From positions 4,340,001 through 4,404,000 of the forward strand of contig NC_092671.1 of assembly GCF_964355755.1 (NCBI RefSeq): a stretch of 64,000 nt of DNA. The letters run 5' to 3'. Below the pieces are notes generated by a model. It was not told where the DNA came from. It made no database searches and was given only the letters and a program-made list of their open reading frames with translations. Origin of the DNA: Antedon mediterranea (Eukaryota > Animalia > Echinodermata). Within the stretch, counting starts at the first letter, position 1. Every line of letters begins with the position of its first letter. Made by a program: the position numbers and the translations under genes. Positions 5,472 through 62,086 of the stretch are shown here, in pieces.

Positions 5472-5487
5472 ACACTAGAGGGCAGCA
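5472..5487 (+). promoter_or_regulatory. CTCF-like motif ACACTAGAGGGCAGCA beside an NRF1-like TGCGCATGCG (also 18566-18581 and 40521-40536)
   Basis: Resembles known consensus motifs only; no functional evidence. Confidence 0.3.
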
Positions 5488-12430: not shown

Positions 12431-12962
12431 TTAATAAATTTAATTATAAACATTAATTTTTCTATACAATAATAAAACAATTAAACAGTCCATTAAGCAG
12501 ATTTACTGGATTTTACGTTTTGTATAGAATACACTTATATTTATGTTAACGTTATCCTCTTCCATTCCCTATGAAGGTACGTATCTATAAACGCATCAAA
12601 TACAGATGGAAGTGAAATTTTGTTTTAAATGGTTTCTAATGTTAATAACAATAGAAGTAATAATGAAGTGGGTCCTTCTTGAAATAAAAGTCAAAGATAC
12701 ATTATAAGGACGATAATTGTGATTTCTTATGCACTTTTAGAGGTGCAGTATTTTTAAAAGCAATGACAAAAAGTATTGCAAGACGTTCATAAGTAAGACT
12801 GAAACAAGTTTAGACGTAAATATGTTGAAATGAAATTATTCATTAATTAATGTTTTTAAAAGATTTAAAAATATACGGTAATCTATCATGTTTGCTAATG
12901 AAGTAAGTAATAATTTTAATTCCGGCATAGATTAAATAAAAGTAAAGTATAAATTGGTAAAA

Positions 12963-18713: not shown

Positions 18714-21700
18714 ATCTTCTTAAAATTATTTCTTTGAATTCCCGTGTTCAGATTCATCATAGGATACATTTGGAATTTATAAGCTACACCCTGATTTTTC
18801 TCACTATCAACACATTTACCTTGTTTGTGTACCATTTCCATAAATTACCGAGGGTAACATAAACTGCCAATCAAACAATTTTCCTTTCGGATTTAGAATG
18901 GAAGTTGTTGCACCGGTGGCGGATTGGAAACGCATTGCGGGATCTTCTTACAGAATAGAGCATAAGTAAATATAAAATTACAATAATTATAATTAGCAAA
19001 ATATTTACACAGTTCAGAATCCACAAAACCATATATCGTTTATCGTGATTAATATCACATATAGTTGCACGATTTGAGATACCATACATATCATTTTTTT
19101 TATTTTTATTTTATTTTATTTTTAAAACCAGAAACAACAGCAGAAACAAATCCGCCACTTACAGCTTGGTTTAACAGATACAAAACAATTACAACAACTC
19201 AGAAACACTTAAATTACGACGAAACAGATAAAGATTGGAATTAAAAATGTCAATATGGGGATGGGCCTGGACTAAAATATTATAATATAAACTTAATCTA
19301 CTGATGTAACCACTTTTGAGAACATTGACTCTACAAAAGGGAACACAAAGGATACTATTGTTTCTTAAATTACGGGCGGGAACACGAATACCGAAATTGG
19401 AAATAAAGTTGCAGTCAAAAATAGAATGAAGACATTTAAAAAGAAAAATAAGATCATTGTGACATCTACGTAATGAAGGGGGAGATATGGGATATATTTT
19501 GTTATCATCACAATTATAAAGATTGTTACATTTAAAAAGATTATTCTGATTGTGGTTGTGGCTGATGTAGCGCAAAAATCTAGAATAGAGTCGGTCAATA
19601 CGTGAGGCTTGGGTTTTGGAGATCGAATTGTAAATAACAGAACAAAAGTCTAAATTAGGTTGGATTAAGGTGATATATAGATAAACTTTGGAAGAACGAC
19701 CGAGATATTTTCCATTGCGCCACATCAGCCCAAGCAGCTTATTGCATTTATTTAGAAGATGATCGACAAGGGAACTATCTAAAATAATACCGAGATCACG
19801 ATGTTGATGCACCTTATTAATAGGTTTGTCGTCGATGGAATAGACATAAACAATTTTATTTTTATTTAAAGTACAGGACAAAATATTGCACTTGGAAGAG
19901 TTTAACATCATGCCCCACAAAGTGGACCAGGAACTAAATTTAGTAAGGTCTCCCTGAAGCATTTCAGCATCTTCATAACTGTTGATAGTTTTAATAATTT
20001 TAAGATCGTCAGCAAACATAAGACAATCTGAATAGCGAAACAGCGATGGAATATCGTTCACATACAAATTAAAAAGGAGGGGACCGAGGATTGACCCCTG
20101 AGGAACACCGGAATGAACTGGAAGCCACTCAGATGCCTCGCCATCGATAACTACACGTTGATGTCTACCATCCAAATAGCTGAACCAGGACAAAAGATGA
20201 GGATTAAAACCAAGTCGTTGAAGTTTAAAAATAAGAAGACTGTGTGGCACCAAATCAAAAGCTTTTGAGAAGTCAGTATATATAACATCACATTGTGCTC
20301 TGCCCTTGATGGCATCATACACAGTTGTCAGAAGACAAGCAAGATTTGTTTCATATGACCTGTTGGGAACGAAACCATGCTGATAGAGAGAGATGGTAGG
20401 ATGAACATGGGACCAAATGTGATTATACATGACTCGTTCGAAAAGTTTTGAGATGGTAGGCAAAATTGAAATCGGTCTGTAATTGGTGACGGATTTCTTG
20501 GAACCAGATTTGTAGATAGGAACAACATTAGATTGCTTCCAGAAAGATGGGAATTTACCAAAAGTCAGAGATTTGTTAAAAATAGAACAGATAGGAATAG
20601 AGAGAGGTTTCGCACAAACTTTTAAAACATGGTTACTCAGCTCATCACAGCCAGAAGCTTTATGTGGTTTGATAGACGTAAGCAGTTTGTAAACAGAATC
20701 CGGCTGAATATCAGGTATAATTAAATAATCAAGGGATGATTCAGGGAGAGCATGATGTTGGTCAGTGATACTTAAAGTAGATTTTTGAAAAACAGAATGA
20801 AAAAATGAATTAAACAAAATAGCTTTATCTTTCGCACTCTCCGCGACCTTGTCCCCGTAGTTCAAAACAGACGGATAAGACGACGTTTTTGTTTTCGTCT
20901 TGATCCATGTCCAAAAGCGCTTGGGATTAGATTTTATGCTATCAGAGAGGGAACGGATATATTGTGAGTAATTCTTTTTGGCAAGCTTTTTAACGTTTTT
21001 CTGGCCGTAATGAAATATTTTTAAAGTGTATTAGTTTATGTTTTTTCCACATTCTGAAAAGGTGTTCTTTACGTTTCAAGATAGCTCTAATTTCATGGTC
21101 AAACCATGGCGGCATTTGGCGTCTGAATGTTTTGATGGGGACAAGATCGCGGAGGGCGGCGTCAATTAAATCGTAAAAAACAGTAACACAATCATCAACA
21201 TTGTCTTCGGTATTAATGATATCAAAAGGAACTTTGTCGAAATGATCAATAAGGTCGCTGTTATTAATTGCTTTAAAATTATAAGATTTTCTATGTAATC
21301 TATTATGACTAATATTGGCAACATAAAAATTTAAAGACAATATAAGAGAGCGATGGTCAGAAGAAAAAATATCTTGACCAACAACAATGTCAGAAATAAG
21401 TTCCTTAGAATTGCATAAAATTAAATCAAGAATATTATTGTTACATGTAGCCGTAACATTACATTGGATCAAATTAAGACCGTTCAACAAGCTGTTAATG
21501 AATAGTTCACCAATTGAATTTGTGGATGCTGATCCCGTACCATCAGTTGTCCACTTAATGTTGGGAAGGTTAAGATCTCCTACCAAGATGAGTTGATGCC
21601 GGAGGTAAGTAGACATTGCATCTTCAACCAATTGGGCGATTTTTAAAATACTCTCACGATTGCTGTTTGGTGCTCTATAGACGACTCCGATAAGTACAAC

Positions 21701-23097
21701 TTTACTTTTACTCATTTTGATTTCAGTCCATAGTAATTCCACATCTTTATGTTCAAGATGGACCAATCGTCTCGATTTAAACTTGTTGGAGGTAAGCAAC
21801 ATAATTCCGCCTCCCCTTCTACCATCGTTTCTGTCTTTCCTATGTGTGGTGAAACCAGGACAGTATAATTCTGAGTCGGAAACAAATGAATTGAGCCATG
21901 TTTCAGAGAAACAAACGAAGTCAAATGAATTATTTAAAAGATGACCTTGCAATTCAGAGTTGTATACATCTAGTTTATTTTTTATGCTTCTAATGTTCTG
22001 ATAGTAGAGCTCAGGAGTGTTGTTGTTATTGTTTTGATTTTGATGACTGGACGTGGTAGAGCATGTGGAATTCAAAACATGTTGACCGATCGTTGGTCCG
22101 GGATTGACTTCGATGTCGCCACACTTGATAAGCGTAGGTTGAAAAGTTGAGACACAAGATCTAGCTGAAAAGTATGGAACTCTGGCACCACTGTATTTGA
22201 GATGAGTAGTACCATTGTTCCTACAGCGTCTACAATCGAGTAGGCCGGCAATTTCAGGCTGAATGCCCAGCCATTGTTCATAACAAAGGTGGACATCGGT
22301 ATTAATTGTTGTGTGCAGGTGTGTACAGCAATGCACAGTGAGGCCTAGCAAGTTGTGAATGATTAGAGGTAAATAATCGTCAAACTGCATAAACTTACGT
22401 CCGTTGATACATTGCACAGTGTTTATATTTGCTTCAGGATGATATGTGCTGGTTTTTAAGATGAAATTATATCTTAGATGGCATATAAAAAAACACAGAT
22501 AGAGAACGTAATGAGAACGACGTGTACTGGCCATTGTATCTTTTTATCATACATATCAGGCCAAGGAAAAATGATTGATACGCGTACAATATATACAAAT
22601 ACAACAGTGTTCACCGCCAAACAAAAAATCCATATTACTGCAGACATTTTAACAGATCTTGAGAGAATACCGAATCCACTTCCTATAAACCAATAAAGTT
22701 TACAAACTGCTATGTAACGTTCAATAGAAAGCAAAAAAATCGTGTAAAACTCTTACGTGCCCGGCACAAGTACGGAAACAATAAAACAGTCCACAATCCA
22801 AGTTATTCATTTCCACTTTATCAATCGTATAGTTAATTACCGGTATTAGATCTTCGCTTATCCATATTGCTAGATACACGTAAACTGGTTTTTGCAATTT
22901 ACTCACCATAACGATAAATGCCATTATGTTGTTGACAATGCCAAAAGCAGCAAAACAGGAGTAATATAGTTAATAAAAATCCTCTCAAAGTCACCTGGAA
23001 GGAACATGTCAATGTATGCATCAAATAGACTCGTGTTAGATGTTAAATTCCCGTGTTCAAATGCATCGTAGGATGTATTGTCGACTGCAAGTGACAT
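18714..23097 (-). pseudogene. GPCR pseudogene B2, split by a LINE; 48-bp TM2 deletion and frameshifts
   Basis: ATG at 23097; YLAIWIS replaces YLANLALADIMILILAPIKIWIS; fragments lie in several frames. Confidence 0.9.
19094..22547 (-). mobile_element. CR1/L2-group LINE, duplicate of 6000-9449 with an unbroken RT region
   Basis: 514-aa APE ORF plus 558-aa RT ORF separated by one frameshift; lacks the 4-bp deletion of copy 1. Confidence 0.92.
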
Positions 23098-32623: not shown

Positions 32624-33679
32624 TCATCTAATCAATCTCGTTCGAATTCTTCTGTAGAAAACGTCAACAAACTCTCGTCTAAAACCGTCATTCACTACAT
32701 TATATATTAAAGGATTTACAGCAGAATTTAGAAATGTTAAAAATCGACAAATATTTAAAAATAAACTATCACGCGATCCAAGAATGTTAGTAAAGTATAA
32801 TATTCCAAACAAATAAAGTGGTTTCACAAGGGCAACATAGACTGTGAATGTCACACAAACTGTCCAGAATATTTTCCTTTCAGATTTAGAACGTGGGTCG
32901 TTCTCACGTGAATTTGATACTATGTTGCGGGATTTTCTTATAGAATAGAGCATAAGTGAATATAAAATTACCATACTTATAATTAGCAACATATTCACAG
33001 TTACGTTCAAAATCAACAAAATTAAATAGAGTTTATTGTATCTTGGATGAATACCACATATAGTTGCACGATTTGTAATACCTCTATACATATCAGGCCA
33101 TGGAAGAATAATAGAAACGCGTATAGCATACACAAAGGCTAAAGTGTTCACAGACAAACCGAAAATCCATATAACTGCACACATCTTAACGGATCTTGAA
33201 GGAGTACCAAATGCACTTGTTTTATATTCAATAGGTCTGCAAACTGCCATATAACGTTCAATGGAAAGCCAAAAAATCGTTAAAACTCCTACATGCCCGG
33301 CACAAGTACTGAAATAATCAAACTGTCCGCATTCAAAGTTGTGAAATTCCGCTTTATCAATTTTATAGTTTACCGGTATCAGATCTTCGCTTATCCATAT
33401 TTTAATTGGTGCAACAATTAAAATGATCGTATCAGCTATTGCCAAATTGGCTAGATACACGTACGCTGGTGAGTGTAATTTACTCACTATAACAATAAAT
33501 GTCATTATGTTGCCGACAATGCCAAATGCAACAACAACAGGAGCAATACAGTTAATCAAAATCCTCTCGAAGTCACTAGGAAGGAACATATCAATGTATA
33601 CATCAAATAGACTCGTGTTAGATGTTAAATTCCCGTGTTCAGATGCACCATAGGATGTATTGTCGACCGAAAGTGACAT
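32624..33679 (-). CDS. Class A GPCR, 351 aa, type-A copy 3
   Basis: Differs from copy 2 by two residues (HTPA/HSPA and KSLN/KSRN). Confidence 0.93.
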   Translation of the reverse strand: MSLSVDNTSYGASEHGNLTSNTSLFDVYIDMFLPSDFERILINCIAPVVVAFGIVGNIMTFIVIVSKLHSPAYVYLANLAIADTIILIVAPIKIWISEDLIPVNYKIDKAEFHNFECGQFDYFSTCAGHVGVLTIFWLSIERYMAVCRPIEYKTSAFGTPSRSVKMCAVIWIFGLSVNTLAFVYAIRVSIILPWPDMYRGITNRATICGIHPRYNKLYLILLILNVTVNMLLIISMVILYSLMLYSIRKSRNIVSNSRENDPRSKSERKIFWTVCVTFTVYVALVKPLYLFGILYFTNILGSRDSLFLNICRFLTFLNSAVNPLIYNVVNDGFRREFVDVFYRRIRTRLIR

Positions 33680-34536
33680 TTCTTTGTTTTCCCCACTGAA
33701 TTGCTAACAAAATACTGTACACAATCTCCCAAACAGTCCTAATAATGGTGCTTTGCCAGAATTCTTTTTAGTAGAGGGACGCGTTCAAACTCACACTACA
33801 TCTAGGCTATATAACAGGTCCAGATTCTACTGATGTCACACAGCCGCAATTACGGCTCTTTCGGACATGTAATATCTGGTAACCACCGGTAAACAACGAC
33901 AAATAGCCACAACTGTACACATATAAATGTAAAAAATAAATTTAATAATAATCTTTGACCAACAATTCTTCCTTCTATAATCCAAACCCCCCCTAAAAAA
34001 ACCCACAAAAAAAAAACCCCAAGCAATTCTCAAACAATGATACAGTATCCCTATTCCCACACAATGTATACACTTCCCCAAATTCCCAATCCTTCCAGAC
34101 AAAATATCGACAATCTTCTTATTGTCAAATATAAATCCCAGAACCCCCCTTTCAAATACAATAATATCACAAGATGAATAATCAAACAATAATAAATGTC
34201 CACAATATCGTTCCTTCTTGCCTTTTCTCCTACGCTGACACAAAAACAAATTCGAAAGATAAAAGTTAAAACGATTCTGCAACTAAACAACTCCCACGCC
34301 TCTTCTCCCGTTCTGCTTGTATTCCCAATTATACTTCTTCTCAACCTGCAACTATCTTCTGACATATAAATAAATGAAATATAAAGTTAAAAATGTTTCT
34401 TGATGTCCTTCTGCACTGCAATCCGCTCCCCGATCAATTATTTCTTTCTCCTTTTCCACGTAACATAATATCAGTATCAATAAAGTCAGTCTTCGATACA
34501 TTCAACAAAAGCTTTCTTTAAAAGCAATTAATTCTG

Positions 34537-35216: not shown

Positions 35217-37202
35217 TTACTCCCCTCTAAAAGAAATATGTCCCAACATTTTCTTCAAACCGGAATGGGTCCTAATACTTTGAAACATGTGTTTGTTGTT
35301 TGATTGTTGTTTGTGTGTTTCTGTGGTCCTAAGTGTTCTGAATGGTGGATTCTTAGTGTTAGCTTGAGACCGGGTAACAACAGAACATCCTTCAAGATTT
35401 TGCTCTGTCCATGTTGGATCTGGATTTCCTGGTGCTCGTACTCCTGCAATGTTACCTAATATCAAACCATAAATAGGGTTACCCATACATAGTGCATACG
35501 TTTTTCCTGAAAAGAATGGAGTATTAACATTTATTAATGCAACCGGTAAGTTGCGAACAGTGCCATCAATCAGCATACATGTTTTCTCTTTACCCGTAAG
35601 TTGTTCGGCGGATACAAGTTCTTTCTTCACAAACACCCCACTACAGCCACTGTCACGAAGAACAGAGACACGGCGTGATCCAACACAACCTGTATAAATG
35701 GGCATTTTACTACTTGAATGATTTAGAGCCGCTGCCATAATTGGAAGACAGTGCCCACACTGAAGCGTGACCTTATCACCATCATTATTGATACAACATT
35801 GATTTAAAGATTCTGACATTTTCGTAACCATACTAGCCCCCACAACGGGAATTTCTTCTTTGGCTTTACAATCGGGTTGGTTTGTACATTTTTGGCAATC
35901 AGACTCTTTTTGTAGTAAAGTAGACAACCCCGAGAAACTGTTGGTATCCTGTCTTCAATTTCTGGCAATATGTCCCATTTTTAAGCATCGGTAACACTTT
36001 GGAGGAGAGTTTCGCTTATACCTAGTTGCAGCTCTGCCGTTCGGCTCTTTTTGAGGTGAAATAGACAACCCAGCGCGTCTACAATTTCTGGCAATGTGTC
36101 CTGTTTTTAAACATCTGTAACATTTTGGAGGAGGGTTTGGTTTATACATAGTTGAGGCTCTGCAATTTCTAGCCAAGTGACCTACACGATGGCATATAAA
36201 ACAAGTTGGGCTACGGAAACTAGATGGGCTTTGTGCTGAGGATGTACTGGGAACATTATTAGAGGGAAGTTGAGGGGAATTCGGCTCCTTTTGTTTAAAC
36301 TCTATTGGTTTACCAAATAACCCCCCACGGGCTTCCAAATATTGTTCAGCAATTTCAGCCATCGCTTGTATCGTTTTCGGTTGAAGTTCCCTTAGGAACA
36401 GGGCAAGGTCCTTCCCACACCCATCAGTAAATTGCTCTCGCAGCAATAAATCTTTTAACCCCTGAAAGGTTTTCTCCCCTCTGCTAGGTCAATCCACCTA
36501 TCCAGATAATTGCTTAACCTTGCAGCGAACTGCAGTCCGCTTTCTCCGTATTCGGGCTTGGCTGTCCGTAACTTATGTCGAAATCCATCGGCGGTTAACT
36601 GAAACCGTTTTAGAAGAGCCAATTTCAACAGTTTGTAATCGTGAGCTTCAGCTGAAGACAACCTGGAATAAACCTCGAGAGCTTTCCCAGTTAGTAGGGC
36701 ACTTAAGTTAACCGGCCACTCACTTTCTTTCCACTCCTGACTAGTCGCATACCGTTCAAACCTAGGCATCTAGGTCATCTGTTCGGTCATGGAAAGGGGG
36801 TAATTTAGGTTTACTGGCCTTAACCCGTGACTCAGGATTGGGTAATACTCTACCACCTGGCCGTGCCCGATTCTTTTCTTGCTCTAATTGGATTTCTAAC
36901 CTTCGCATTTCTATGAGATAGGCCTGATTTTCAGCTTCTTTCACCCTTTCATTTACTCTCTCTTTTTCTTCACTCGCTCTTTTCCTCTCTGCTTCGTCCC
37001 TCTCTAGCACCTCTCTTCTCTCTCTCTCTTCCTTGTCTCTGTTTCGCTCTTTTTCTTCTCTCTCCCTGTTTCTTTCTTCTCTCTCTAGTGCTCTCTCTTC
37101 TCTCTCTCTCACAGCTTCCTCTCTCTTTTCCACAAACTCCCTTAATTCCACTCCATCCAAACCCAACGCTTTTCCTGCATCAACAATTTTAGTGAGATCC
37201 AT
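35217..37202 (-). pseudogene. Disrupted gag-protease of the LTR element
   Basis: Coiled-coil N-terminus, RFERYA...LLTGKALEVY capsid-like region, three CX2CX4HX4C knuckles (last Cys is now TGA), protease LRDSGCS; frameshifts near 36765 and 36450; no RT, RNase H or integrase. Confidence 0.9.
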
Positions 37203-37346
37203 TTCTTACGAAAAAAAAAAAATATATATATATATGTAAAGTATCCAATATAAGTATACAGTATGTCAATAATATGACAAATAGACAATCCAATCAATCA
37301 CGTACAATTGTTTCATCTACCGATGTTCACGCTAGGTTACAAAGTC

Positions 37347-47036: not shown

Positions 47037-48089
47037 TCATCTAATCAATCTCATCCGAATTCTTCTGTAGAAAACGTCAACAAACTCTCGCCTAAAACCG
47101 TCATTTACTACATTATATATCAAAGGATTTACAGAAGAATTTAGATATGTTAGAAATCGACATATATTTAAAAATAAAGAATCACCCGATCCAAGAATGT
47201 TTAAAAAGTATAACATTCCAAAAAAATAAAGTGGTTGCACGAGAACGACGTAAACTGCGACTGTCACAAAAACTGTCCAGAATATTTTCCTTTCAGATTT
47301 AAAATGTGGGTCGTTCTCACGTGAATTTGATACTTTTTTGCGGGATTTTCTTATAGAATAGAGCATAAGTGAATATAAAATTACCATACTTATAATTAGC
47401 AACATATTAACAGTTAAGTTCAAAATCCACAAAATTGTACACAGTGTATTGTAGCTTGGATTATAACCACATATAGTTGCACGATTTGAAATACCTCTAT
47501 ACATGTCAGGCCAAGGAAGAATGATGGATGCGCGTATAGCATACACAAATGCTACAGTGTTCACAGACAAACAGAAAATCCATATAACTACACACATTTT
47601 TACGGATCTTGAAGTACCAAATCTACTTGTTTTAAACTGAAAAGGTCTGCAAACTGCCATATAACGTTCAATGGAAAGTCCAACAATCGTTAAAACTCCT
47701 GCATGCAGGGCACAATTACTGAAATAATCAAACAGTCCACATTCAAAGTTGTTTATTTCCATTTCATCAATCGTATAGTTCACCGGTATTAAATCCTCAC
47801 TTATCCATATTTTACTGGGCCCTATAATTAAATTCATTGTATCAGCAATTGCCAAATTGGCTAGATACACGTAAACTGTTGTGTGTAATTTACTCACCAT
47901 GACGATAAATGTCATTATGTTTCCCACAATGCCAAAAGCAACAACAACAGGAATAATATAGTTAATCAAAATCCTCTCGAAGTCACTAGGAAGGAACATA
48001 TCAATGTAAGCATCAAATAGACTCGTGTTAGATGTTAAATTCCCGTATTCAAATGCATCATACGATGCATTGTCGACGGAGAGTGACAT
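47037..48089 (-). CDS. Class A GPCR, 350 aa, diverged intact paralog (type C)
   Basis: Same motifs (NLAIAD, SIERY, NSSVNPLIY). Start set at ATG 48089 by homology (MSLSVDN), not at the upstream TTG of the ORF track. Confidence 0.92.
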   Translation of the reverse strand: MSLSVDNASYDAFEYGNLTSNTSLFDAYIDMFLPSDFERILINYIIPVVVAFGIVGNIMTFIVMVSKLHTTVYVYLANLAIADTMNLIIGPSKIWISEDLIPVNYTIDEMEINNFECGLFDYFSNCALHAGVLTIVGLSIERYMAVCRPFQFKTSRFGTSRSVKMCVVIWIFCLSVNTVAFVYAIRASIILPWPDMYRGISNRATICGYNPSYNTLCTILWILNLTVNMLLIISMVILYSLMLYSIRKSRKKVSNSRENDPHFKSERKIFWTVFVTVAVYVVLVQPLYFFGMLYFLNILGSGDSLFLNICRFLTYLNSSVNPLIYNVVNDGFRREFVDVFYRRIRMRLIR

Positions 48090-48529
48090 TTCTTTGTTTT
48101 TGGAAAATTCCCACAGAATGCCTATAGTTTCCAATAAAAGAAAACGTGAACGATTAACTATGATTGAAATAAGACGCCAGTGAACAGGAAACAAATTCAA
48201 ACAGTCCTATAGATGCTTTGTCAGAATTCTATTGAGTAGAGGGACTTCAAACTCACAGTGCTCCCTATATAACGAGTTTAGCTACTGCTGACAATGATAA
48301 AATGTGGGCGTTACTATGCACGAAAGTGATTTTAAAATGTATTGGTATACGGTGGTTTTACTAAACTCAACGTATCCTATTCAAATGTAGACGTAACGAA
48401 TGAGAATTGAATTCAAAGAATAAAGTTATCGGTGGAATGTAGCCACACCTATTTACCCCCAATAAGGAAAAAGGACTTTAATTTTAATGAATGTACTTGA
48501 TAACAGGCCATCGTTGTTGTTTAACAAAA

Positions 48530-48641: not shown

Positions 48642-49847
48642 ATTTTATGTCTTTAGCCACATGTGGCCAAAATTACCAATAGTAAATTATAATCACCAGG
48701 CCCGTAGCCAGAATGCATCAGAGGGGGGTTTTCTTGACACCAAGTATTTTGCGAGCACAGCGAGCAACTGTAGGCTGGGGGCCAGGGGGCCGCCAAGGGC
48801 CCCGGTCGGGGTCCAGGGGCGAAGGCCCCTGGAAGCTTTGGCTCTCAGAGCAATTTCGGTTGTTTTAATAAGCTTACAGAGACATTTTTTACCTACTAAA
48901 ATCTGAGTTATGCAGAGAAATTATATAGTACAGTATTATGGAAGTTAGTAGTACTGATCATGAAATACAGCTTTATTGTTGCAAAAAAGAATATTATATT
49001 AGGCCCTTAAATAATTTCTTATCCTATAAACATAAAAAACAAATAGTACCGTATATTTCGGTGTACAAGTCGCACCTGTGTATAAGACGCACCCATAACG
49101 GAGACTGAAATATTAGTATTTTTTATGTAGTCGATGCATAAGACGCATTTTAATAATAAAACAACGATATTTGAGACATATTTATTAGAATCAAATGATA
49201 TAATTTTGTTTGATTGCCTTTATTACATCGTATCAGTCTCTACTTCAACTGAACGTTCAATGAAAAGGGAAATCCCCATATTGTTTCAGTTACGATGCAC
49301 TGTGTGGGTAGGGCTAGCCTTAGCCTATCTATGTCTATTTAAGTAACTTTAATTTCACATTATTTAAATATATACCTTCTTATTGTGTGTATGACCATTA
49401 TAAAATCAATCCAAATGATGTTCAGTTTTTTGGGCTGATAATGAACCAGGAATATCATGTTGGGTAGGCCTATATGAAAATCTTTCCTATTTTCATGCAT
49501 GCATTACAGCAATATGAGGAGAGGAGAGCACTAACCATGTGCTCCTTGCCTGGTGGCCAGCACTGTTGGCCATATACACTATGAGATTAGGGGAAGCTAC
49601 TTACAATAACAACACACTCTTTTAGATATCGCTTGACATACGAACTATTGCCTAAATGATTATAAAATCATGTGATTGTTGACATAGAGATGTAATAAAA
49701 ATAAACCATCGTGATCAAGGGAAATAGTTATTGTGTAATTAAAATGTGACACCACCGTAATTAATGGACTCTTCCATAAATGTGTTGCGCTGATGCTGCA
49801 TGCTGCTAGAATACACACCCGCGAGTACTAGGCCTGGGTAGAATATC

Positions 49848-50510
49848 TACGGTGGCCTATAAGTGTCACGGCAACTTTCAAAAAATATCACGGCAATTGT
49901 TTCAAAAAAAGCCACGGCAATTTGAAAAAAGCCACGGCAATTTGAAAAAAGCCACGGCAAATTAAAAATAAAACATCACGGCAAATTAGAAATAAAACAT
50001 CACGGCAATTTAACAAAAATACCACGGCAACTTTAAAAATGAAACACCAAGGCAAATTAGTATTGAAACGCCACGGCAAATTAGTAATGAAACACCACGG
50101 CAAATTACAGAAAGCCACGGCGGAAATGAGTTACCACGGCGGAAGTAAAACCCCTGGAATCTTCGATTTTTTCTGAGGTAAGTAATTATTTGTGCATTGA
50201 TGTAAATAATAATTAATATATTAGTGTATTTAACTGCAGCAGTTACGACGTACGTGTTTATTGCACTCTTCTTGAACTGCCTAGGCCGGGCTAGACCCTA
50301 GGCCTTATTACAAGGCACTACATTCTACAACGTTTTAATATTTTTACAGTAATCTTTTTTTTATATTAACATTAACAAGTTTTTTTTTACAGTAGGCCTA
50401 GCCTCTGTCTCTATCTAGGCCTAGCTAGGCTAGCTGTTACATACAGGCCTAACTAGAGGCCTTATTAGTAGTAAAACTAGGCTAGGCCTAGTAGTAGTAG
50501 GGCATAGCTA
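49848..50510 (+). repeat. Left TIR with an array of CACGGC(AA) motifs (49867-50140)
   Basis: About a dozen motifs spaced 17-31 bp apart; inverted copy at 55885-56512. Confidence 0.9.
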
Positions 50511-51042
50511 AGCCTAGGCTAGGCTATATTTCTATAAATAATAAAAATAATAATAAAGCTTTAGCAGGTTTTAGGTTGTTGTCAGCAGGTTTAGGTCTAG
50601 GCCTAGTTTAGGCTTAATAACGGCCCTGGCTATGTCTATGTATGAATCATAGCGAATGTATACTATATATAGGCCTAGGCCTAGTAGGCATAACAACATG
50701 GAGATGGTTTGGCTAATAATAAAGAGGCCTAGCCGGCACTACTGTGTACTTTGACACCTAACTGGGCATAAGACGGTCACTCACCATCACAATCGCTCAG
50801 CAGATAATTGTTTTTAAATTGGGTTAAGCTTGTGAGATGTGGTGCAAAGTAGCACTAACCAAGTCTAGGCAGTTGCATTATTGTTAGTAGGTAAGTGTAA
50901 ATTAATTGTCTGATACATACAGTACACAATATATTTTCTATTTTCAGGAACTATTATGAATATGTGAGAGTCTTGGTTGTGAAGGTGCCAAGAAAAAGTG
51001 ACCATATTTATAGGCTGTATAGGCCGTACACAGTAATGCAAT

Positions 51043-52206
51043 ATGACTGGCAGAGAAAACAGTGATCTGGATGAGACAGAAGAAGATGAAATTGATGAAG
51101 ACGGATTAATCAAATATTATTTTTTCAAAGGTTTTATATATGATGAAATCTGTTTGTTTTTGTCCAAGTACCATGGCATAGAATTAAGTTTAAGTACGTT
51201 GAAAAGGAGGATAAAGCGTCTAGGACTTAAACGTAAAAATCCAGATTATGATATTGATTTTATAACAGAGTCCATCCAAACATTACTGAATGGACCTGAT
51301 AGTCAGAGAGGTTACCGTTCAATTTGGCACACACTGCAATTAAATGGTATACGGGTACCAAGATTGGTTGTCGAACAAGTACTACGAGAGCTGGACCCAG
51401 ATGGTGTTCAAGAAAGGGCACGCCATCGACTAAAAAGACGAGTTTATCGTAATCCCGGACCGAATCATTCGTGGCATTGTGATGGGTATGACAAACTAAA
51501 ACCTTTCGGCTTTCCTATTCATGGTTGTATTGACGGTTGGAGCAGGAAAATTATTTGGTTATATGTAACCCGCTCAAATAATTTACCCACAAATATTTTT
51601 TTATAATTTTATTTAGAAGCAGCGGAGAAAGCTGCAGGATGTCCAATTGACTTGGTTACTGATCGTGGAACAGAAAATGGTTTAATGGCTGCAATGCAAG
51701 CCTTTTTTAGAGATGATCCAGGTAGTCACCGTTATGTTCCTTCGCCAAGGAATCAAAGGATAGAAGGATGGTGGTCTTTTTTTAGACGAAGTCACACACA
51801 TTGGTGGATTAATTTTTTTAAAGAACTTTGTGAAAATAATGTTGTTGACCTTACTAATTTACTGCATAAGGAGTGCCTCTGGTTTTGTTTTAGTGATTTA
51901 CTACAAAAGAGCATTGATGAAGTTAAAGAGCATTGGAACACTCACTATATTCGCAAATCACGACATGATACTGTACAGGGGCGACCTGATTCTTTGTATT
52001 TTTTACCAGAACTTCATGGGGGTACTTCAAACTTGCTACTTTCTATTACAGAACACAACAAGAGATTTGCGAAGGAACATTTGATTGAAACAGAAGAAAA
52101 TAATATTCACAATGACTATTTTATCTACATCATGGAAACATGTCAGTTCCAGCAACCTAGTAATTGGCAAGAAGCACTTAGGCTTAATTGTATGGTATGC
52201 TGTTAA
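51043..52206 (+). pseudogene. IS3/IS481-like DDE transposase (integrase core) with one in-frame stop at 51604-51606
   Basis: HTH-like N-terminus (LSLSTLKRRIKRLGL), RGYRSIW, and triad WHCDGYDKL / VTDRGTEN / NQRIEGWW. The two ORFs are in the same frame (NIFL*FYLEA). Confidence 0.88.
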
Positions 52207-53232
52207 TGGTGTCAATTGAGAAAATACCTGCACTGGTTCTAGTAGTTTTGCATTCATTATAAAAAGTTTTAATTTACAATAAAACTGAAAATGTTGAATA
52301 AAACCGAAAATAATTCAAGTATTGAGTTAGCAAATTATTGTATTGTTATGTTTTGCTTATAACAGCTTATCAGCTTGAATGGAGTGTTTTATAATGTACT
52401 CATATTATATGTTTCACTTATAGAATGGATTTGGATAAAAATGGCCTATTTAAAGTTTAATTTTTGTAAACAATGAACAATTGCTAAATAAACATGAATA
52501 ACTATACATTAGTTGTTGAGTAAACTCTGCCATTTCATTTATTATTTATTTATTTATTATTTCAGTAATGCATTTGAATAATGTTATAATTGTGATGTCA
52601 TTACTGTTTTAAAATATCGTCTGTAGACAAAACTATGAGAAAATATATATGGTGTTCATTTTAATTATATGTAAAACAATGTAAAAATGTGGTCTATTTA
52701 TCAAGTAAGTAATATGACTATAATGCATTGCAACATGTGGTTTATTCAAATGTGTACTACTGTATTCATTACAGCAGGCCAAGAGGAAACATTTTCTAAT
52801 AACTTAGAAATACAGTGGAAGAAACACTGTAAATATATGCAGAAACTTTAACATATTAAAACACTATTTATCTTTTACAGTATTATTTAAAAGAAGCACT
52901 GATTTTAATTTTGAAATTTACCTCTTTTTTGTTAACTATGCGTGCTGGTACTAATTATTATACTAAACAGGATTTCCATTGCCTAATTATAATAAAATGA
53001 TTGGAAAATCAAATAAAACATTAGCAAGTCATCAAACGTAAAACCATTTCAACAACAAACTTTTAAGTCATAATAGAATAAACACTGTTTATTATAAACA
53101 GAACTGTTTATTATAAACAGAACTAGAACACAATAATAACTCCGAAATACAGTGCTAATGCTTGAAAAACATGAACATATGTTGGTCAGTGGCAATCTAT
53201 AAAGAATGTATAATTGGCTGCTTGTTGTTTAA

Positions 53233-55420
53233 TTAAGACTTTGCAAAAGATTGACCCTTGCAATAACCGAGTATAAAAAGCTTACGAAATTCATCTTCTG
53301 TGTGCATGTGTGCAACTGGTAATGTTAAGTCTCTGCTACAAGCACCAACCAATGGGAAGCATACTGTATGCTTTGGGTTTCGCAATAGACATTCATGGTC
53401 GAATCTTACAGTTATAGATGGTCTTTCTCTTCCCATGACATGCTTCTGTCTCTGACCAGTCAGCCATCCCATAACACCTGCTACACTGAGTTTAGGGTTT
53501 TCAAATTCTGCGTCTTCAGAACAACGGCCTTCTTCATTGTCCACATTCCATGTCACAGAAGCATGATAGCCGGTCATATCAGTGTCTTCTAAAGACATCA
53601 ACAAATCTTGAAAGTAATCCATAATAGATTCTTCACGAGTGCGCTTCGACGATCCTTGCTCCGAGTGAATGGGTTCTATTAAAGAAAAAAGATAGTTTGC
53701 ATCTGGCTCAAGGTTCTTTTTGAACTCTGAAACAAACAAGCTTGCACAAGCATCTGGATAAGCTGATATAATTTGCTGCAAATCATACCTATCAAAACCG
53801 CGCTTGAATTCATTCATGCACAAAGTACGTTTACCCACAAACGCGACTTTAACTGACTTTAAGATATCCTCTACATTTTTTTCACCAATTATCCCTGTAT
53901 AACCATGCTCCAAAATTGTGTCAACATGGGCATGACAGTCATTTCTGATTTTACTTAGAGTATCTAGTTCATAGGCAGTTAAGTCTTCATCTTTTATATC
54001 CTGCAAATCAACATCTGCATATAAACACCTGTATGCACATCGATCGAGAAAACATGAGATAGGACCACCCTGCGCTATTGAAACGGAGACTATTTCTCCG
54101 CAAGTGCGGAAATTGCCATTTTGGATTTGGTTGGTTGAATACAAAGGGCTTCCATATGGAAACATCTGTGCAGCGATGGCATCTAAAGTATTTTCCAAAA
54201 ATTCCATCGACATTGCCCCAGAGTCGATTCCTTCTTCGCCGCTAAATTTTACCCTAAATTGCGACATGATATCTGACTTTTTTGATTCCCGTTGCCACAG
54301 AAAAAGTTGTCTGTTAAGTGGAGCATTTCTTCTGCATATCAAAAAAAATTGTTTACTTGAATCAATTCTTGTATTTAACTGCGCGCATACATCTTTCGCT
54401 GATGTCACAACTTGAAGATTTTGCACGGCAGTTAAGGCTGGTTGTGTCAAATTGACAAAACTATCTTTCTTCACTTCTGACTGTATGTTTTCATCTCCTT
54501 CATCATTTTCCTTTATATCAAATGATTCTCTAACGTACCCTTCTTCATGTTGGTTCAGGTCAAATAGATTTTCATTATTTACATTATCATTATCATTTTC
54601 CTCACTGTCATCACTTCCTCCTTCAAATGATTTAAAGTCGTCCTCATGACATACATAAAGAATTATTCTCTTGAAATCCCTTCCAAGTTTGTTTTTGTAT
54701 TTTTCTAGTTGAAAGAATTCTTTGTAATTTCCTGGTATAAATCGAGCGTAGCTGTTATCTTTGTAAAGTAAAACATAGCTGCTTTTGCTGTCAAACTCTC
54801 TATCGAAAGCAGCCAATTTTTCAATAGCCCTTTCAAGAACAATCGGATATGTGGCCGCCTTGGGCAACCTAATCGGTAGTCGTTTCCCTCTAGCAGCTTT
54901 GAGCATTCCGTTTTTTAACTGCTTAAACCCAATGTTAATTGTTACTTCTTCATCTAATTTTCTTGACTTTTTCCTTGGCATTGTGACATTCTCTTTTGAT
55001 GTTTTAGCTTTTAAAAATTTATCAAATGACATAATGCTCCTTTTCATACTGGTGGTATCTGTCTGAGAAGTCGAAATACTAGTGGAGCAGGTGGGAGATT
55101 GAGATTCAACTTCATTTGACAATTTTGGTGAGCAGTCAGATGGTCGCAATTTTGTTTGGTTGCCTTTACATGACCAACAAAATTTTGATATCACTAGAAC
55201 CTTTGCTCCACACTCACTACAGTATCTGGAAAATAGAATAATGCATGTACTGTTAAAGTTGGTGTGGTGATGGACATCAAACACAAACCCTCATACGATT
55301 GTCACTACTTACAGTACAGGTAGATTTGCAAGGGCAATTTATTTATACTGTACTCTATAAGTAAACTTACACAATATCTATATCCTTTTCACGGCCTCCT
55401 CCTCCATCACGTTCAGCCAT
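53233..55420 (-). CDS. Zinc-ribbon plus HECT-domain (G2E3-like) E3 ubiquitin-ligase-like protein, about 680 aa; coding exons 55420-55371 and 55225-53233
   Basis: HECT-like motifs VKFSGEEGIDSGAMSMEF, FRTCGEIVSVSIAQGGP, MGWLTG, FPLVGACSRDLTLP (Cys at 53338-53340) and terminal SFAKS; N-terminal CSEC..FCWSC. A 145-bp GTAAGT...TTTTCCAG intron joins MAERDGGGGREKDIDIV to YCSEC in frame. Confidence 0.8.
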
Positions 55421-55884
55421 TTTTTGGTCTACTTGTTCTAAAAGGAATTTAAGCACAAATATCATGTATAAAATATAGTCAAACAATCGTAATTAAATGA
55501 AACAAGTGAGAGAGAAAGAGTTACTTTCCGTGCTGGCCTAGAAAACACATAAGCCTACCGACTGTATGCAAGCTCAATGTCATACATATTATGTTATACA
55601 TAACATTAATTTGCACTATCAAAAAAATAATAGTTAATACTATATAATATTTGTCATAAAATAACTATAATTCAAGGCTAATCGTTAATATACCAAGTAT
55701 CAATTCCAAAACTATCTACTATCCTATAATTATTATAGGATAGATAGTTTTATAATAATAATACTAATAGGCCTATAGGCCTACAACTACAATAAAATCT
55801 AGGCCTATACCCACCTAGCTGCGGCTGCTAATAGCTAAGTCTAGCCTATATGGCCTAGCCGACGATCAGTGGCGCGAGTAAATT

Positions 55885-56512
55885 CGCTATGCCTAGCTAG
55901 GCCTACTAGTTTTACTAGGCCTAATGCCTGTAGTACTAGCTAGGACTGTAACAGTAGCTAGCCTAGGCCTACTTACTGTAAAAAAAACTTAATTGTTTAA
56001 TATAAAAAACATATTACTGTAAATATATTAAAACATTGTAGAATGTAGGGTCTAGACCTACCTTATAAAGCCTAGGCCTAGTAGGGTCTAGCCCGGCATA
56101 GAGAGTTCAAGAAGAGTGCAATAAACACGTGCGTACTGTAAATTAATATATTATTTACATCAATACACAAATATTAATTACTTACCTCAGAAAAAATCGA
56201 AGATTCCAGGGGTTTCACTTCCGCCGTGGTAACTCATTTCCGCCGTGGCTTTCTGTAATTTGCCGTGGTGTTTCATTACTAATTTGCCGTGGCGTTTCAA
56301 TACTAATTTGCCGTGGTGTTTCATTTTTAAGTTGCCGTGGTATTTTTGTTAAATTGCCGTGATGTTTTATTTTTCATTTGCCGTGATGTTTTATTTTTAA
56401 TTTGCCGTGGCTTTTTTCAAATTGCCGTGGCTTTTTTCAAATTGCCGTGGCTTTTTTTGAAAATTGCCGTGATATATTTTTAAACTTGCCGTGACACTTA
56501 TAGGCCACCGTA
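55885..56512 (-). repeat. Right TIR with (TT)GCCGTG array
   Basis: Reverse complement of 49848-50510; highly similar over the outer ~345 bp. Confidence 0.9.
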
Positions 56513-57772
56513 AATATCTAATGCGTACTGTAATATTAATTAATTAGGGTAACATTTAGAGGTCAAATTTGTGTGTCAAAAGTGCGTCTTATACACCGAA
56601 ATATACGGTAGGCCTACGTACACGTACCAATTTAACTCAGCACCATTTTTATTCAAGTTTACACAGTGGTTTAATGAAATATATTTCCAGGAAAAAAATT
56701 AAAATCCCCAAAAAGATTGAACTGACTGAACGTGATCTTGTGCGTTCCGAAAAGCCCGGCCGAAGCACGCGATTGGTCAGTCCATTTTTCTGTCATATTT
56801 ATAACCATCATCTCTCAACAATCTCTCGATCTCACGCTCAGCAGTGACATTGACATCGGACAATCTGTATATTCGATCGATTTAAACATAGTCAATTTAT
56901 AGAAGTAAAATGACCAAAAAATCTGCTATAATTGATAATTAATTGCACGATTTTGGAAGTGGGGCCTTTGTTTTTCAAGGGGGTTCGCTGGTAAAAGGGG
57001 GGTTCGCGCAAAAGGGGGGTTCGCCCGAACCCCCAAAAACCCCCCTGGCTACGGGCCTGATCACTGTCCTATCATATCAGAGAGGTGGTAATCCTCCTGA
57101 TTCAACGGGTGCACCGGGGTAACCCCCTACAGGTCTCGAATGATGAACTGGGTTCAAAGTGCACACAGGTTATAACTGTGTACACTGAACGGTTTATAGT
57201 CCTTATCCAAAAAGACTTGTTCCACCACCAGTAGGAGCGAACCCATGCCGATGGTGCCGGCTCTTTAGGTAACCGTTCGGCCATTTGACTCGCGGATGCA
57301 TAAAATTACTTACTTCTATAACACATACAGCATATTATTTAAAAACATTAAAAAAAAATAAGATTAAACATATATAATTACAAAATAAAAAATGCTGATT
57401 TTAAATAAATGCTGATTTTGAAATTATAAGTAAATCTTATTGCAACAAATTGAAACTTTAAATGAAAATCATAACAAATAGACGACATATAAATAATTAT
57501 AATTTGATAAATATCAGTTTCGAGGCATTTCATAACATCCGACCCAAAGATGCCATCGCATGATCCTCGTAGAAAAATATAATAATAATTAATTGTTTGT
57601 ACGCTTTAAAGCTTCTTTATATGGATAGTTTTGATTACCTTATTTCCGGGCGAAAGGAACAATAAAGTATTGTTATTTTTCACCAATTTGTATTTACTTC
57701 TTATACTTCCTTATCATATATGATTTGCCAGATGTAAACAAATCTTAAGATGAGAGTATGAAATTTGTTTCA

Positions 57773-57857: not shown

Positions 57858-58446
57858 TTTTTACACTTACCTCACTTCATTAACAGAAATATAATTGAGA
57901 ATTTGTATTATATAAAAAGAAAGAGAAAAACCACTGAATTGATGAATATAATTGTTTTGATAATTGACAAACAAAAAGAAAAAAGTAATCAATAAGATTT
58001 GCCTTTTTCGCATAATATAAAAAGAGAACTAATTATTTTGCTGTTACTGCCACTTATACTATATAATATGTATTATTTTCTATTATTGTACTTGGGCTAG
58101 TGGCCTACATTATTGAATACATGAATGTTTGAAGCATAATACATCACAGAAGCTATTACCTCATTTCCGCTATGTAGAAACAATCAAGTAGGCCTACTAT
58201 TGAACATGATACTCGCTTTTCATTTCTTCGAAAAAGATTTATAATACATTGTTTGTACGTTGTTAAAGCTTCCTTATATGGATATTTTGTAAACAGATAG
58301 GCCTACATCACCAGACTTTGATTATTACCTAATTTCCGCTATAACCTAATGTCTGGAAAGAAAATTAAGTACTGCTATGTTTTGCCAATTTTTATCTATA
58401 GGCTTATATAAATTATGCTTTTTTCTGGAATAGGTAGACACAATGT

Positions 58447-61400
58447 AGTTTAAATGTACGGGGGCTTAGAAACCCTTTTAAACGCAGCACCGTATTTAAT
58501 TGGCTAAGGGATCAACCCTTCTCCATATATCTCCTACAAGAAACCCACTGCACACATGAGCTGGAAACTGCGTGGCGTAATGACTGGGGTTCTGAGATTA
58601 AATTTAGCAATGGAAAGAATAATTCGGCTGGAGTCTGTATTCTTTTAAAATTAAATGTCAGCTACAAAATAGGAAACATATACAATGATCAAAATGGGAA
58701 ATTTATTATTATGAATATACAAATAGAGGATAAACATATTACAATTGCAAATTTATATGGTCCAAATGATGACAACAGTTTCTTTTTTGAACAATTTAAT
58801 AATAAAATTGAGGAGTTCGCACAGTACTCTCTAATAATAGGCGGAGATTTTAATACAATACTTGAACCTGATCTGGATAAGAAAAATGGAAGAGGTCAAA
58901 TTCACCCGAGATCTGTAGAACAAATAAATAGTATAAAAGACAATTATAATTTAATTGACATCTGGAGACAGGAAAATCCAACTAAAACCCAATTTACATG
59001 GCACTCCAATCAATCTCCAAAAGTGTTCTGTAGGTTAGATTATTTTCTTATATCCTATGAACTTTGAAAAAACTTTAATATCACCGGGTTTTAAAAGTGA
59101 CCATTCATTGATTACGTTATCAATACATGGAATAACAAGCAAACGAGGGTCAGGTTTCTGGAAACTGAATACAAGCCTTTTAAGTGACCCACAATACGTT
59201 AAAGAAATTAAAGAAACCATAAAAAACACAAAAGAAGAATGTTTAGAAAATAACCCACATACTGTATGGGAAATGATAAAATGTAATACAAGGAGAACAT
59301 CAATGTCGTATTCTGGTAGACTAAATAAAACAATTAAAAAAGACGCGGATCGATTAAACAATGAAATCAAAACCTTAGAAGAGCAATATTGCGTAAACAG
59401 TAATGAAAAAATAACCGAAATGATCCAAATTAAAAGAAACGAACTAGAATCAATCTATGAAATTAGAACACGTGGCTCACTGATTCGATCCAAAGCCCGT
59501 TGGATAGAAGAAGGAGAAAAAAGCACGAAATATTTTCTTAATTTAGAGAGGAGGAATTATAATAAAAAGCATATAACTAAAATTACAACAGATAATGGAG
59601 ACATAACTAACCCCGACGATATAATAAATGAAGAAAAACGATTCTATGAATCATTATATAGTTTTGAAGGCGAAAATAACAATGTCAACCCTGCTGATAT
59701 TTTTGACAAGATACACATAGATAAAATCAATAAAGATGATGAATCTATATGTGACCAGCCCCTTAGAGATACAGAATGTTTAGAAGCATTAAAGGCGATG
59801 GATAACAATAAAACCCCTGGGACAGATGGTTTTCCTGCCGAGTTTTATAAACTATTTTGGAATGATATAAAAGATACGCTAATTAACGCTTACCATTATT
59901 CTTTCCAATCCGGGTTTTTAAGTATCTCCCAGAAACGAGGGGTGATATCACTTATACCGAAAAAAGATAAATCTCCGCTATTATTGAAAAACTGGCGTCC
60001 CATCTCGCTTTTAAATGTGGATTATAAAATTTTAGCAAAAGCCATTGCGACTCGTTTAAAATGTGTGCTGCCATCAGTAATTAATCCTGATCAAACGGGC
60101 TTTCTTAAAGGCAGATATATTGGAGAAAACATAAGATTAGTCTATGATGTAATAAAATATGCAGAAATGCACAACAAGCCAAACTTACTATTTTTTGTAG
60201 ATTTTGAAAAGGCTTTCGATAAGGTGAAATGGGACTTCCTTGATATGTCTCTTAAGAGATTTGGCTTTGGTAAAAATATGATAAATTGGATAAAAATATT
60301 ATATAAAGACATTGTTAGTTGCGTTATAAATAACGGGGTAACATCAAAATTCTTCAATTTAAAACGAGGCCTGCGTCAAGGATGTCCCTTATCCCCATAT
60401 CTTTTTATAATTTGTGCAGAAACACTAGGTAACATGGTACGTCAATCAGACACATTTAAAGGTATAGAGTACAATAATGTAGACATAAGAATTAGCCAAT
60501 TTGCAGATGACACTGTGTTTTTTCTCAAAGACCAAAACTCAATTAAACCGATTATAGATATACTGGATGAATTTTCTATATATTCTGGACTCAGAATTAA
60601 TTATGAAAAAAGTAACATTATGAGAATAGGATCGTTAAGAAACTGCGACTATAAAACGCCATCTGAGAAAAGTATTTCATGGACCAAAGGCCCAGTAAAA
60701 TACTTGGGTGTCAATATTTCTTGTAATTTTAATGATATTTTCAGACTCAATTTTCCAGATAAGGCTAAAAATGCTGAACAAGTATTAAATATGTGGAAAC
60801 AACGCTCACTTACTCTGTTTGGAAAAGCAACTATTATTAAGTCACTGTTTCTCCCGATATTCACGTATGTTTTCTCAAATTTACCAGACCCACCCGATTG
60901 TTTCCTTCAAGATATTCAAAGTAAAATTTTTAAATTTATATGGAACGGAAAACCCGATAAAGTCAAAAGAAAAGTCATGCTTAACAATTTTGACGAAGGA
61001 GGGTTAAAAATTCCCCATATTAAGAGTTACTGTACATCTCTCAAATCATGTTGGGTGAAAAGATATCTTGATGGAAATCAATCCAAGTGGAAAGTGTTTT
61101 TAAAAAGTAAGATTAAAGAGGTTGGAGGAAATATTGTTTTCGAAACCAACTTTTCTAAATCTTCAAAAATATTAAAACAATTTGAAAGGTTCCATAAAGA
61201 TATACTCTCTGCGTGGAGTGAATACAATTTTGTAGAACCGTATACGATAGAGGACATCTTAAATCAATCTTTATGGAACAACTCATGTTTTGATAAAAGA
61301 GAATTTAAAGTTGAAAAAAATTGGTTGGTTAAAAATGTAAACTATGTAAAAGATATCGTGAACAAAGAAGGGAAAATATTAGAACTAGACGAATTTAACC

Positions 61401-62086
61401 AAAAATATAATTTTAAACCAGACTTCTTATTATATCACCAGATTGTAAATTCAATTCCAAAGCTCTGGAAACAGAAATTAATTGAACAAGGTATAAACAC
61501 AACTAATGAAGTTGAATCCAAATTACAGACATTCATTTCTGTGAAAACGAGAAATTGTCATTATATCTATAAACACATTATATTAAAAAATGTTGAAGAG
61601 CCAATTGGAATTGAATCCAAATGGGAAAAGGAGTTTGACAACAAACTTAATTGGAAAAACCTTTTCTCAAATTTACACGCCTGTACAAATGACACTAAGC
61701 TAAAAAATTTTCAATTTAAATTTATTCATCGTATAATTTATACAAATACAATGCTCTTTAAGATGTCAAAGGTCGATTCACCAATGTGTAGTTTTTGCAA
61801 GGAAAAGCAGGAAACACTGCTACATATGTTCTTTGAATGTGATCTGGTAAAGAACATTTGGGAAAATGTAAAACAATATATGTATCGAAATATCAACAAT
61901 AACTTAATTATCACCAAAGAAAGTATATGTTTTGGTTTTGGAAAAACACACAGTGATGCAAACATTTTAATTTTAATTACAAAGTGGTACATATTTAGTT
62001 GCAAAATCAAAAAACAATTACTTAATTATAATCATTTATTTCACATTTACCAAAAATACAAGGCAACCATATTATTAGCAAAATGA
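58447..62086 (+). pseudogene. LINE ORF2 (APE, RT, Zn finger) with one frameshift near 59060
   Basis: LNVRGL, LQETH, GGDFN, RLDY and SDH (APE); NWRPISLL, GLRQGCPLS and QFADD (RT); CSFC..ETLLHMFFEC. No start codon retained. Confidence 0.92.

Follow-up and report, generated by a model that had tools for sequence, protein, structure and literature searches.

The window analysed here, a 64,000-nt stretch of the echinoderm Antedon mediterranea genome (contig NC_092671.1, positions 4,340,001 to 4,404,000 of the forward strand), contains a DNA transposon of the IS3EU/GingerRoot superfamily that spans positions 49848-56512 (6,665 bp, ~6.7 kb). Besides a gene for a DDE transposase, the element carries a second, convergent gene whose product is predicted to be a HECT-type ubiquitin ligase (hereafter, the ligase). 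Taken as a whole, the locus is a real, well-bounded, transposase-defective IS3EU element, and, as is typical of the lineage, it has a divergent predicted HECT ligase as its second gene. The features of the element are collected in Table 1.

Table 1. Features of the element and their positions in the window (pLDDT, predicted local distance difference test)
Feature	Position	Strand	Basis
Left target-site duplication AATATC	49842..49847	+	Sequence
Left terminal inverted repeat, begins TACGGTGGCC	49848..50404	+	~13 CACGGC repeats at 49867-50140
IS3EU/GingerRoot DDE transposase, D147/D207/E241 counted from Met	51043..52206	+	Pfam, motifs
HECT-type ubiquitin-ligase gene (predicted), ~680 residues	53233..55420	-	Open frame, predicted splice, fold
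HECT domain, N- and C-lobe, predicted	53236..54417	-	Profile, model, structure searches
Phe662 (-4 Phe)	53245..53247	-	Homologue alignment; E6AP role from PMC6463701
Putative catalytic Cys631 in P-x4-C-x3-L-x-L-P	53338..53340	-	Homologue alignment
H612-x-C614..H621-x2-C624 cluster, putative zinc site by catalytic loop	53359..53397	-	Homologue alignments
Acidic linker, predicted disordered	54424..54615	-	pLDDT < 50
Ubiquitin-like (beta-grasp) domain, predicted	54619..54948	-	Model, structure search
Basic patch PRKKSRK, putative nuclear-import signal	54958..54978	-	Sequence
CxxC..CxxC zinc ribbon, predicted	55168..55221	-	Pfam, homologue alignment
Right terminal inverted repeat, with mirror repeats	55960..56512	-	Alignment to left repeat
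Right target-site duplication AATATC	56513..56518	+	Sequence

Boundaries and inverted repeats of the element

On the left, the target sequence AATATC runs directly into TACGGTGGCC at 49848; on the right, GGCCACCGTA ends at 56512 and is followed directly by the second AATATC. The termini of the element are TACGG..CCGTA, and the only two TAYGGTGGSC termini in the window are those at its two ends. IS3EU elements, which have been joined with GingerRoot, are described as ending in TA..TA and as usually making duplications of 6 bp (Kojima and Bao 2023, PMC10045372), and both features are found here, the ends being of the TAYGG..CCRTA form (PMC12730594). The bounds, the TAC..GTA ends, and the 6-bp duplication given in an earlier reading of this DNA (the sequence-only reading) are all borne out, and its assignment to IS3EU agrees with the termini, the duplication, and the transposase motifs. 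The inverted repeats of ~650 bp that it had described were judged too long because the alignment covers ~560 bp (87%, 504/580 columns), with the outer 340 bp ~97% alike. In GingerRoot elements, by contrast, the inverted repeats are 100-150 bp long.

Each inverted repeat contains ~13 repeats of 20-24 bp centred on CACGGC, which are probably transposase-binding sites. A splice-donor-like GAG/GTAAGT is present at 50177 in the left inverted repeat, with a mirror counterpart at ~56186 in the right one. A splice donor conserved in the inverted repeats across the family was considered and rejected, such a site being found at positions 250-450 in 5 of 16 ends versus 8% by chance.

No second copy of the element was found within the window. 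Two contigs of one public run join the left flank directly to the right flank (56513) and represent a putative empty site. In all four runs, contig depth, which is not equivalent to copy number, is far higher over the outer repeats (49848-50190 and 56175-56512) than over the interior and hints at many short non-autonomous derivatives. Both flanks (48800-49847 and 56513-57600) are repetitive and share an inverted 34-nt match (49047-49080 and 56577-56610); the element appears to have inserted into another repeat.

A defective transposase of the IS3EU type

The transposase, which starts at the ATG at 51043, exceeds the cut-off of Pfam rva_4 (PF24764) in both of its halves and contains the motifs WHCDGYDKLKP, TDRGTEN, and NQRIE. 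By eye, these motifs match the IS3EU rows of an alignment in the supplement of PMC10045372 and do not match its Ginger2 or bacterial IS3 rows, and the DDE core WHxDGYDKLKP/TDxGTEN/NQRIE is shared with IS3EU-1_HM, IS3EU-5_DR, and the coral element AD_GR-003. By Pfam and motifs, the protein is an IS3/IS481-like DDE transposase without HHCC, as found in IS3EU/GingerRoot elements. The sequence-only reading was right about the DDE transposase but overlooked two lesions. An in-frame TAA at 51604-51606 falls between the first and second catalytic Asp, and near 52183 a frameshift replaces the conserved C terminus. Because of these lesions this copy is not autonomous, which leaves its family membership unaffected. 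Neither lesion is present in runs X3, X4, and X5, whose contigs come from two samples, and the species therefore has other versions of the element family; a contig of run X1 over the same stretch departs from the window at one letter and eight gap positions. With its ligase frame open and no working transposase of its own, this copy might be movable in trans.

The second gene encodes a predicted HECT ligase

The second gene has an open frame of 685 codons on the minus strand (55290-53233). A gene model predicted from the sequence only, consisting of a 50-nt exon 1 (55420-55371), a 145-nt GT-AG intron (55370-55226), and exon 2 (55225-53233), yields a protein of 680 residues. No contig joint corresponding to this intron was present among the matches listed, and run X5 is only guessed to be RNA. 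Residues of the ligase are numbered here according to the 665-residue translation of 55230-53236.

An AlphaFold2 model of the ligase has a mean pLDDT of 80.8, and its residues 272-665 match HECT domains (Foldseek best E = 8e-11). In the structure search, all 50 matches listed are HECT ligases, and the match to the HECT domain of HUWE1 has a Z score of 22.6 with a root-mean-square deviation (rmsd) of 4.2 over 334 aligned residues; sequence identity to canonical HECT domains in such structural alignments is 11-17%. A single-sequence search of the PDB gave E6AP at E = 0.022, and when a profile of 105 family sequences was used, all 18 matching sequences were HECT ligases. The model has the C-terminal bilobed domain of ~350 residues with the E6AP fold that marks HECT ligases, and the putative catalytic Cys (Cys631 of 665) stands at the usual ~30-35 residues before the C terminus.

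Of the 105 aligned rows, 77 have a residue at the position of Cys631, and in 76 of these it is Cys. The -4 Phe (Phe662) occurs in 66 of 75 complete C termini and in 53 of 59 distant homologues. No exception to either residue was seen in the 14 transposase-linked loci that cover them. Cys631 and Phe662 share the register of Cys820/Leu824/Phe849 in E6AP, where Cys820 is catalytic and the donor ubiquitin is contacted by Phe849, the fourth residue from the C terminus (PMC6463701). Next to Cys631 lies a near-invariant His/Cys cluster that the sequence-only reading had not pointed out (H612 in 75/76, C614 in 75/76, H621 in 74/75, C624 in 74/75, and H641 in 71/74 sequences). The C-terminal motif is reached by 59 of 140 further, more distant representatives, and the cluster is found in 54 of these 59. 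The cluster is likely a zinc site and possibly a marker of this HECT clade. From the model and the alignments, we predict that the second gene encodes a HECT-type ubiquitin ligase with catalytic activity.

The N-terminal half of the protein contains several smaller parts. The ribbon matches Pfam Zn_Ribbon_1 weakly in this protein (E = 0.039) and above the cut-off in 2 of 25 homologues, and basic patches occur in homologues at the position corresponding to PRKKSRK (by eye). Residues 95-204, when folded separately, gave a pLDDT of 85.3 and a modest score against ubiquitin-like folds (Z up to 8.4, rmsd 3.2, 87 residues). Nearly all 50 structure matches of this region are ubiquitin-like as judged from their titles, and Foldseek returned no match for it at E ≤ 0.001. 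The architecture put forward in the sequence-only reading, in which a convergent gene of ~680 residues encodes a CxxC..CxxC ribbon, PRKKSRK, a beta-grasp domain, an acidic linker, and a HECT-like domain with its Cys in an LPxxxxCxxxLxLP context, was thus recovered in the open frame with its predicted splice, in the alignments, and in the model, and the structure searches returned the HECT fold.

Directly inside the repeat array, a stretch coding for CxxC..CxxC is found on the ligase side of loci L022, L026, L027, L036, and L044 of other genomes, as well as of L012 and L013. At L012 (~5075-5140) and L013 (~12480-12610), such a stretch is also found on the transposase side. These observations, all made by eye, suggest that the ribbon exon may be common to both genes through the inverted repeats.

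Linkage of ligase and transposase in other genomes

A scan of metagenome contigs provided 57 ligase loci. A relative of the transposase is present in 15 of them, always downstream and on the opposite strand, i.e., in the convergent arrangement. Where at least 1.6 kb is available past the ligase match, the transposase was found in 14 of 14 loci (13 clean and one ambiguous); it was not seen in five loci with 1.0-1.4 kb downstream, and two loci have no ligase match at the cut-off. The whole element, bounded by TACGGTGGCC..GGCCACCGTA and by a 6-bp duplication of its own, is present at two loci, L013 (6875-12978, CTTATC) and L036 (2280-8259, ATCTAC). Termini were also scanned for in those of loci L001-L050 that extend 1300 nt or more upstream of the ligase gene, 18 in number: nine of the 18 have a terminus in the correct orientation 967-1432 nt upstream and none has a reversed one, while shuffles expect 0.085. 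Indirect evidence comes from Dendronephthya, in which a ligase homologue (LOC114535677) and a transposase (LOC114535679) have adjacent locus numbers and are listed on contigs of equal length. Homologues sitting beside a related transposase within shared termini and 6-bp duplications, as anticipated in the sequence-only reading, were thus found in other genomes, and the ligase is a standing, regular part of the element lineage, not a one-off capture.

Locus L010 was rejected as a clean pair, its two genes being separated by a second terminus and its transposase belonging to the other IS3EU clade. At both L010 (2594-6411) and L011 (3084), the ligase gene is directly followed by another IS3EU-type terminus and by a transposase of this NHKL-motif clade, an arrangement that is possibly a nested insertion or a chimera.

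Selection on the ligase and possible exchange between lineages

For the HECT domain, the median ratio of nonsynonymous to synonymous substitution rates (dN/dS) is 0.54 in 17 near-identical pairs, 0.38 in 16 pairs at dS 0.1-0.4, and 0.20 in 22 pairs at dS 0.4-1.5, the pairs in these bins sharing loci. In seven pairs that use each locus once, dN/dS is 0.15-0.37 for the N-lobe and 0.09-0.43 for the C-lobe; for the transposase it is 0.12-0.32 (three pairs). A gene that is selected in active elements and decays in single copies would be expected to give such ratios, and the comparison of copies suggested in the sequence-only reading thereby points to purifying selection, with a ratio of ~0.2 between families.

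Close relatives hold matching gene pairs (L002/L003, L014/L015/L036, and L027/L038). Across 16 elements, the identities of transposase and ligase are weakly correlated (Spearman 0.19, permutation p = 0.15), and trees of 13 elements, from which three short ones were excluded, have conflicting supported nodes (L019+L039 at 98% in the transposase tree and L012+L039 at 97% in the ligase tree). Strict co-phylogeny of the two genes is not supported on either ground. L039 and L019 have transposases that are 74% identical and ligases that are 41% identical, for which a ligase-gene swap between families or a recombinant dead copy is a possible explanation. In view of the tree conflict, ligase genes may be exchanged between transposase lineages.

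Proposed function and alternative explanations

The reading that we prefer, in which our confidence is about even, is that this two-gene IS3EU/GingerRoot transposon has a selected second gene whose product, a predicted active HECT ligase, likely tags a host nuclear restriction protein. Inward promoters in both inverted repeats would co-express transposase and ligase; by eye, the ribbon-coding first exon of several relatives starts at the inner edge of the repeat array, and in the window both inverted repeats have the splice-donor-like site. The basic patch would carry the ligase into the nucleus. There, the N-terminal ribbon, helix, and ubiquitin-like domain would select the substrate, while Cys631 would accept ubiquitin by way of the host activating (E1) and conjugating (E2) enzymes and hand it over. 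That this substrate is a host silencing or chromatin protein seems to us a little short of an even prospect; a host target is ranked first in view of the seeming exchangeability of the partners and of the alpha-kinase and TET/JBP genes in fungal IS3EU elements. A broader proposal, which we regard as rather doubtful, is that animal IS3EU elements encode their own zinc-marked HECT clade to destroy or re-tag host silencing proteins, and that stranded copies explain many of the orphan HECT genes found in corals, tunicates, and fish (e.g., zgc:112970), perhaps including G2E3-like genes.

Several observations weigh against the preferred reading. Pfam HECT (PF00632) has no match in this protein, and its cut-off is passed by one of 25 homologues, with a weak match in six more. 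Two active-site neighbours that affect catalysis in E6AP, His818 and Phe821 (PMC6463701), correspond to Gly and to Ser/Gly/Ala in the ligase family. Purifying selection acts on the ubiquitin-like domain (dN/dS 0.08-0.31, six pairs), and an arms race is not apparent. Upstream, nine of the 18 loci scanned lack the terminus, and four of the nine positive loci belong to one family, with different flanks. Finally, part of the tree conflict stems from L039, a copy that is frameshifted and truncated.

An active ligase might instead act on its own transposase or transpososome, either limiting its level or marking the post-insertion complex for disassembly and so letting the host repair the site. Second proteins that bind their transposase are known from Harbinger and CACTA elements, and the fixed convergent layout of the two genes, the matching pairs in close relatives, and the purifying selection on the ubiquitin-like domain would all suit such a role. 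However, the weak identity correlation and the conflicting supported nodes suit partner swapping better than a lock-and-key pair, and we consider the transposase, although the main alternative, a rather unlikely substrate. A complex prediction for the intact L012 transposase (residues 17-410) and its ligase (54-553, without the C-lobe), in which alignments were unused, scored 0.00 and is evidence neither way.

Two further alternatives deny the protein either its activity or its role in the element. In one, the HECT fold is kept without ubiquitin transfer and serves as a scaffold, a zinc-binding module, or a decoy for the host E2. Low identity to canonical HECT domains and the altered active-site neighbours fit this idea, as does the near-invariant cluster beside Cys631, in view of which Cys631 could be a metal ligand; yet Cys631 is in the exact catalytic register, the -4 Phe is kept in close and distant homologues alike, and four ligands are present in the cluster without Cys631, all of which makes a non-catalytic protein improbable. 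In the other, a host HECT gene was captured once and is carried along as passive cargo or kept for the benefit of the host. Captured gene fragments are reported in 29% of Selaginella GingerRoot elements (PMC6839031), and some fish homologues, in the zgc:112970 cluster, resemble ordinary genes common to several species. Against this stand the presence of the whole gene in one position and orientation in families that are only 40-55% identical, the contrast between dN/dS of ~0.2 between families and near-neutral decay among copies, and the multi-copy homologues in Clavelina, Dendronephthya, and Engraulis. Passive cargo is already largely refuted and is, in our view, very improbable.

Comparison with known systems

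In fungi, an alpha-kinase gene lies opposite the transposase of IS3EU elements, which also carry TET/JBP genes that are thought to counter silencing (Kojima 2025, PMC12730594). These elements resemble the present one in their TAYGG..CCRTA ends and in having a gene for a protein-modifying enzyme opposite the transposase; the fungal cargo comprises a kinase and a DNA dioxygenase, whereas that described here is a predicted ubiquitin ligase in animals. IS3EU/GingerRoot elements also occur in cnidarians and fish (PMC10045372; Cerbin et al. 2019, PMC6839031), and the structure and function of IS3EU have been described as largely unexplored (PMC11934779). In Arabidopsis, the VANC anti-silencing proteins of Mu-like VANDAL elements bind element DNA (PMC5735166, PMC10398659). 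The ligase would be comparable to VANC as a second transposon-encoded protein that aids its element against host control; VANC is a plant DNA binder, whereas the ligase is predicted to act on proteins and its anti-silencing role is a proposal.

With host HECT E3 ligases (E6AP, HUWE1, UBR5, the NEDD4 family, and G2E3), the ligase shares the C-terminal bilobed fold, the Cys register, and the -4 Phe. It differs from them in its low sequence identity, the missing Pfam match, the N terminus with ribbon and ubiquitin-like domain, the extra HxC..HxxC cluster, and the mobile, multi-copy nature of its family. Zisupton/KDZ transposons, which carry F-box and SUMO-protease domains, likewise bear parts of the ubiquitin/SUMO system; they belong to another transposase superfamily and contribute adaptor or protease domains, unlike the self-contained catalytic ligase gene predicted here.

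To our knowledge, few transposon-encoded counter-defence proteins are known in animals. With a selected, predicted ubiquitin ligase as the regular second gene of a widespread and little-studied superfamily, both the substrate and the need for the ligase in transposition become addressable with one compact protein. The elements likely exploit the protein-tagging system of the host to aid their own spread. Some 1,400 related clusters, which are called 'uncharacterized' or at most 'HECT domain-containing' where named, may largely be transposon genes. Annotation is affected by this, as is the view of HECT evolution, to which a clade with a possible zinc site would be added.

By text search, neither 'HECT' nor 'ubiquitin' occurs in the main texts of four IS3EU/GingerRoot papers (PMC10045372, PMC12730594, PMC11934779, and PMC6839031); 'HECT' is absent from the IS3EU supplements searched, and 'ubiquitin' from the one searched for that word. 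Literature pairing HECT with transposon, transposase, inverted-repeat, or G2E3 included nothing relevant by title or abstract start. The IS3EU literature, among the 40 of 63 matches listed, contained no HECT report; Repbase entries and Kojima's 2019 review lie outside this scope and may already name the domain. For zgc:112970, the best 10 of 66 matches were all unrelated. Within the literature searched, a report of the ligase-bearing IS3EU pairing was not found.

Homologues and relation to G2E3

A homologue search with 7993 scored candidates resulted in 113 homologues. Except for one fusion model, those with names come from octocorals, stony corals, and one tunicate and are annotated as 'uncharacterized' or 'hypothetical'. 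An exhaustive search produced 1449 related protein clusters at E ≤ 0.001, and UniRef labels some Clavelina and Coilia homologues as 'HECT domain-containing'. The protein cluster to which P0189 belongs contains homologues from four characiform fishes that are >90% alike, one of them bearing the name zgc:112970, and is a candidate for either a domesticated copy or a host ancestor of the clade. A viral origin was also considered, and searches of viral contigs with both profiles turned up no relative.

G2E3 is listed as having arisen after the split of chordates and echinoderms (Marin 2010, PMC2837046); in the parts of this classification of animal HECT ligases that were available, transposons are not mentioned and the present clade is not covered. 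The name G2E3 is absent among the 10 homologue clusters looked up, and Atlas clusters named G2E3 match at weak scores only. The ligase lacks the N-terminal PHD/RING-like fingers of G2E3 and has a single ribbon and a ubiquitin-like domain in that region. One G2E3-like Atlas cluster does have PHD_G2E3, and its match to the ligase is confined to the HECT part, with a template-modelling (TM) score of 0.45.

Surroundings of the element

The DNA around the element has an animal-like character. The window also contains a tandem array of closely related rhodopsin-family receptor genes (9623-10054, 12963-14042, 32624-33703, and 47037-48206). The array has a duplicated block of ~13 kb, in which lie two long interspersed nuclear elements (LINEs; 3162-9445 and 16256-22543). 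Decayed gag/protease-like frames of a long-terminal-repeat element were recognized by eye at 35217-37205, where the one frame scanned had no Pfam match. On the far side of the transposon, a near-complete LINE with endonuclease and reverse transcriptase occupies 58438-62086.

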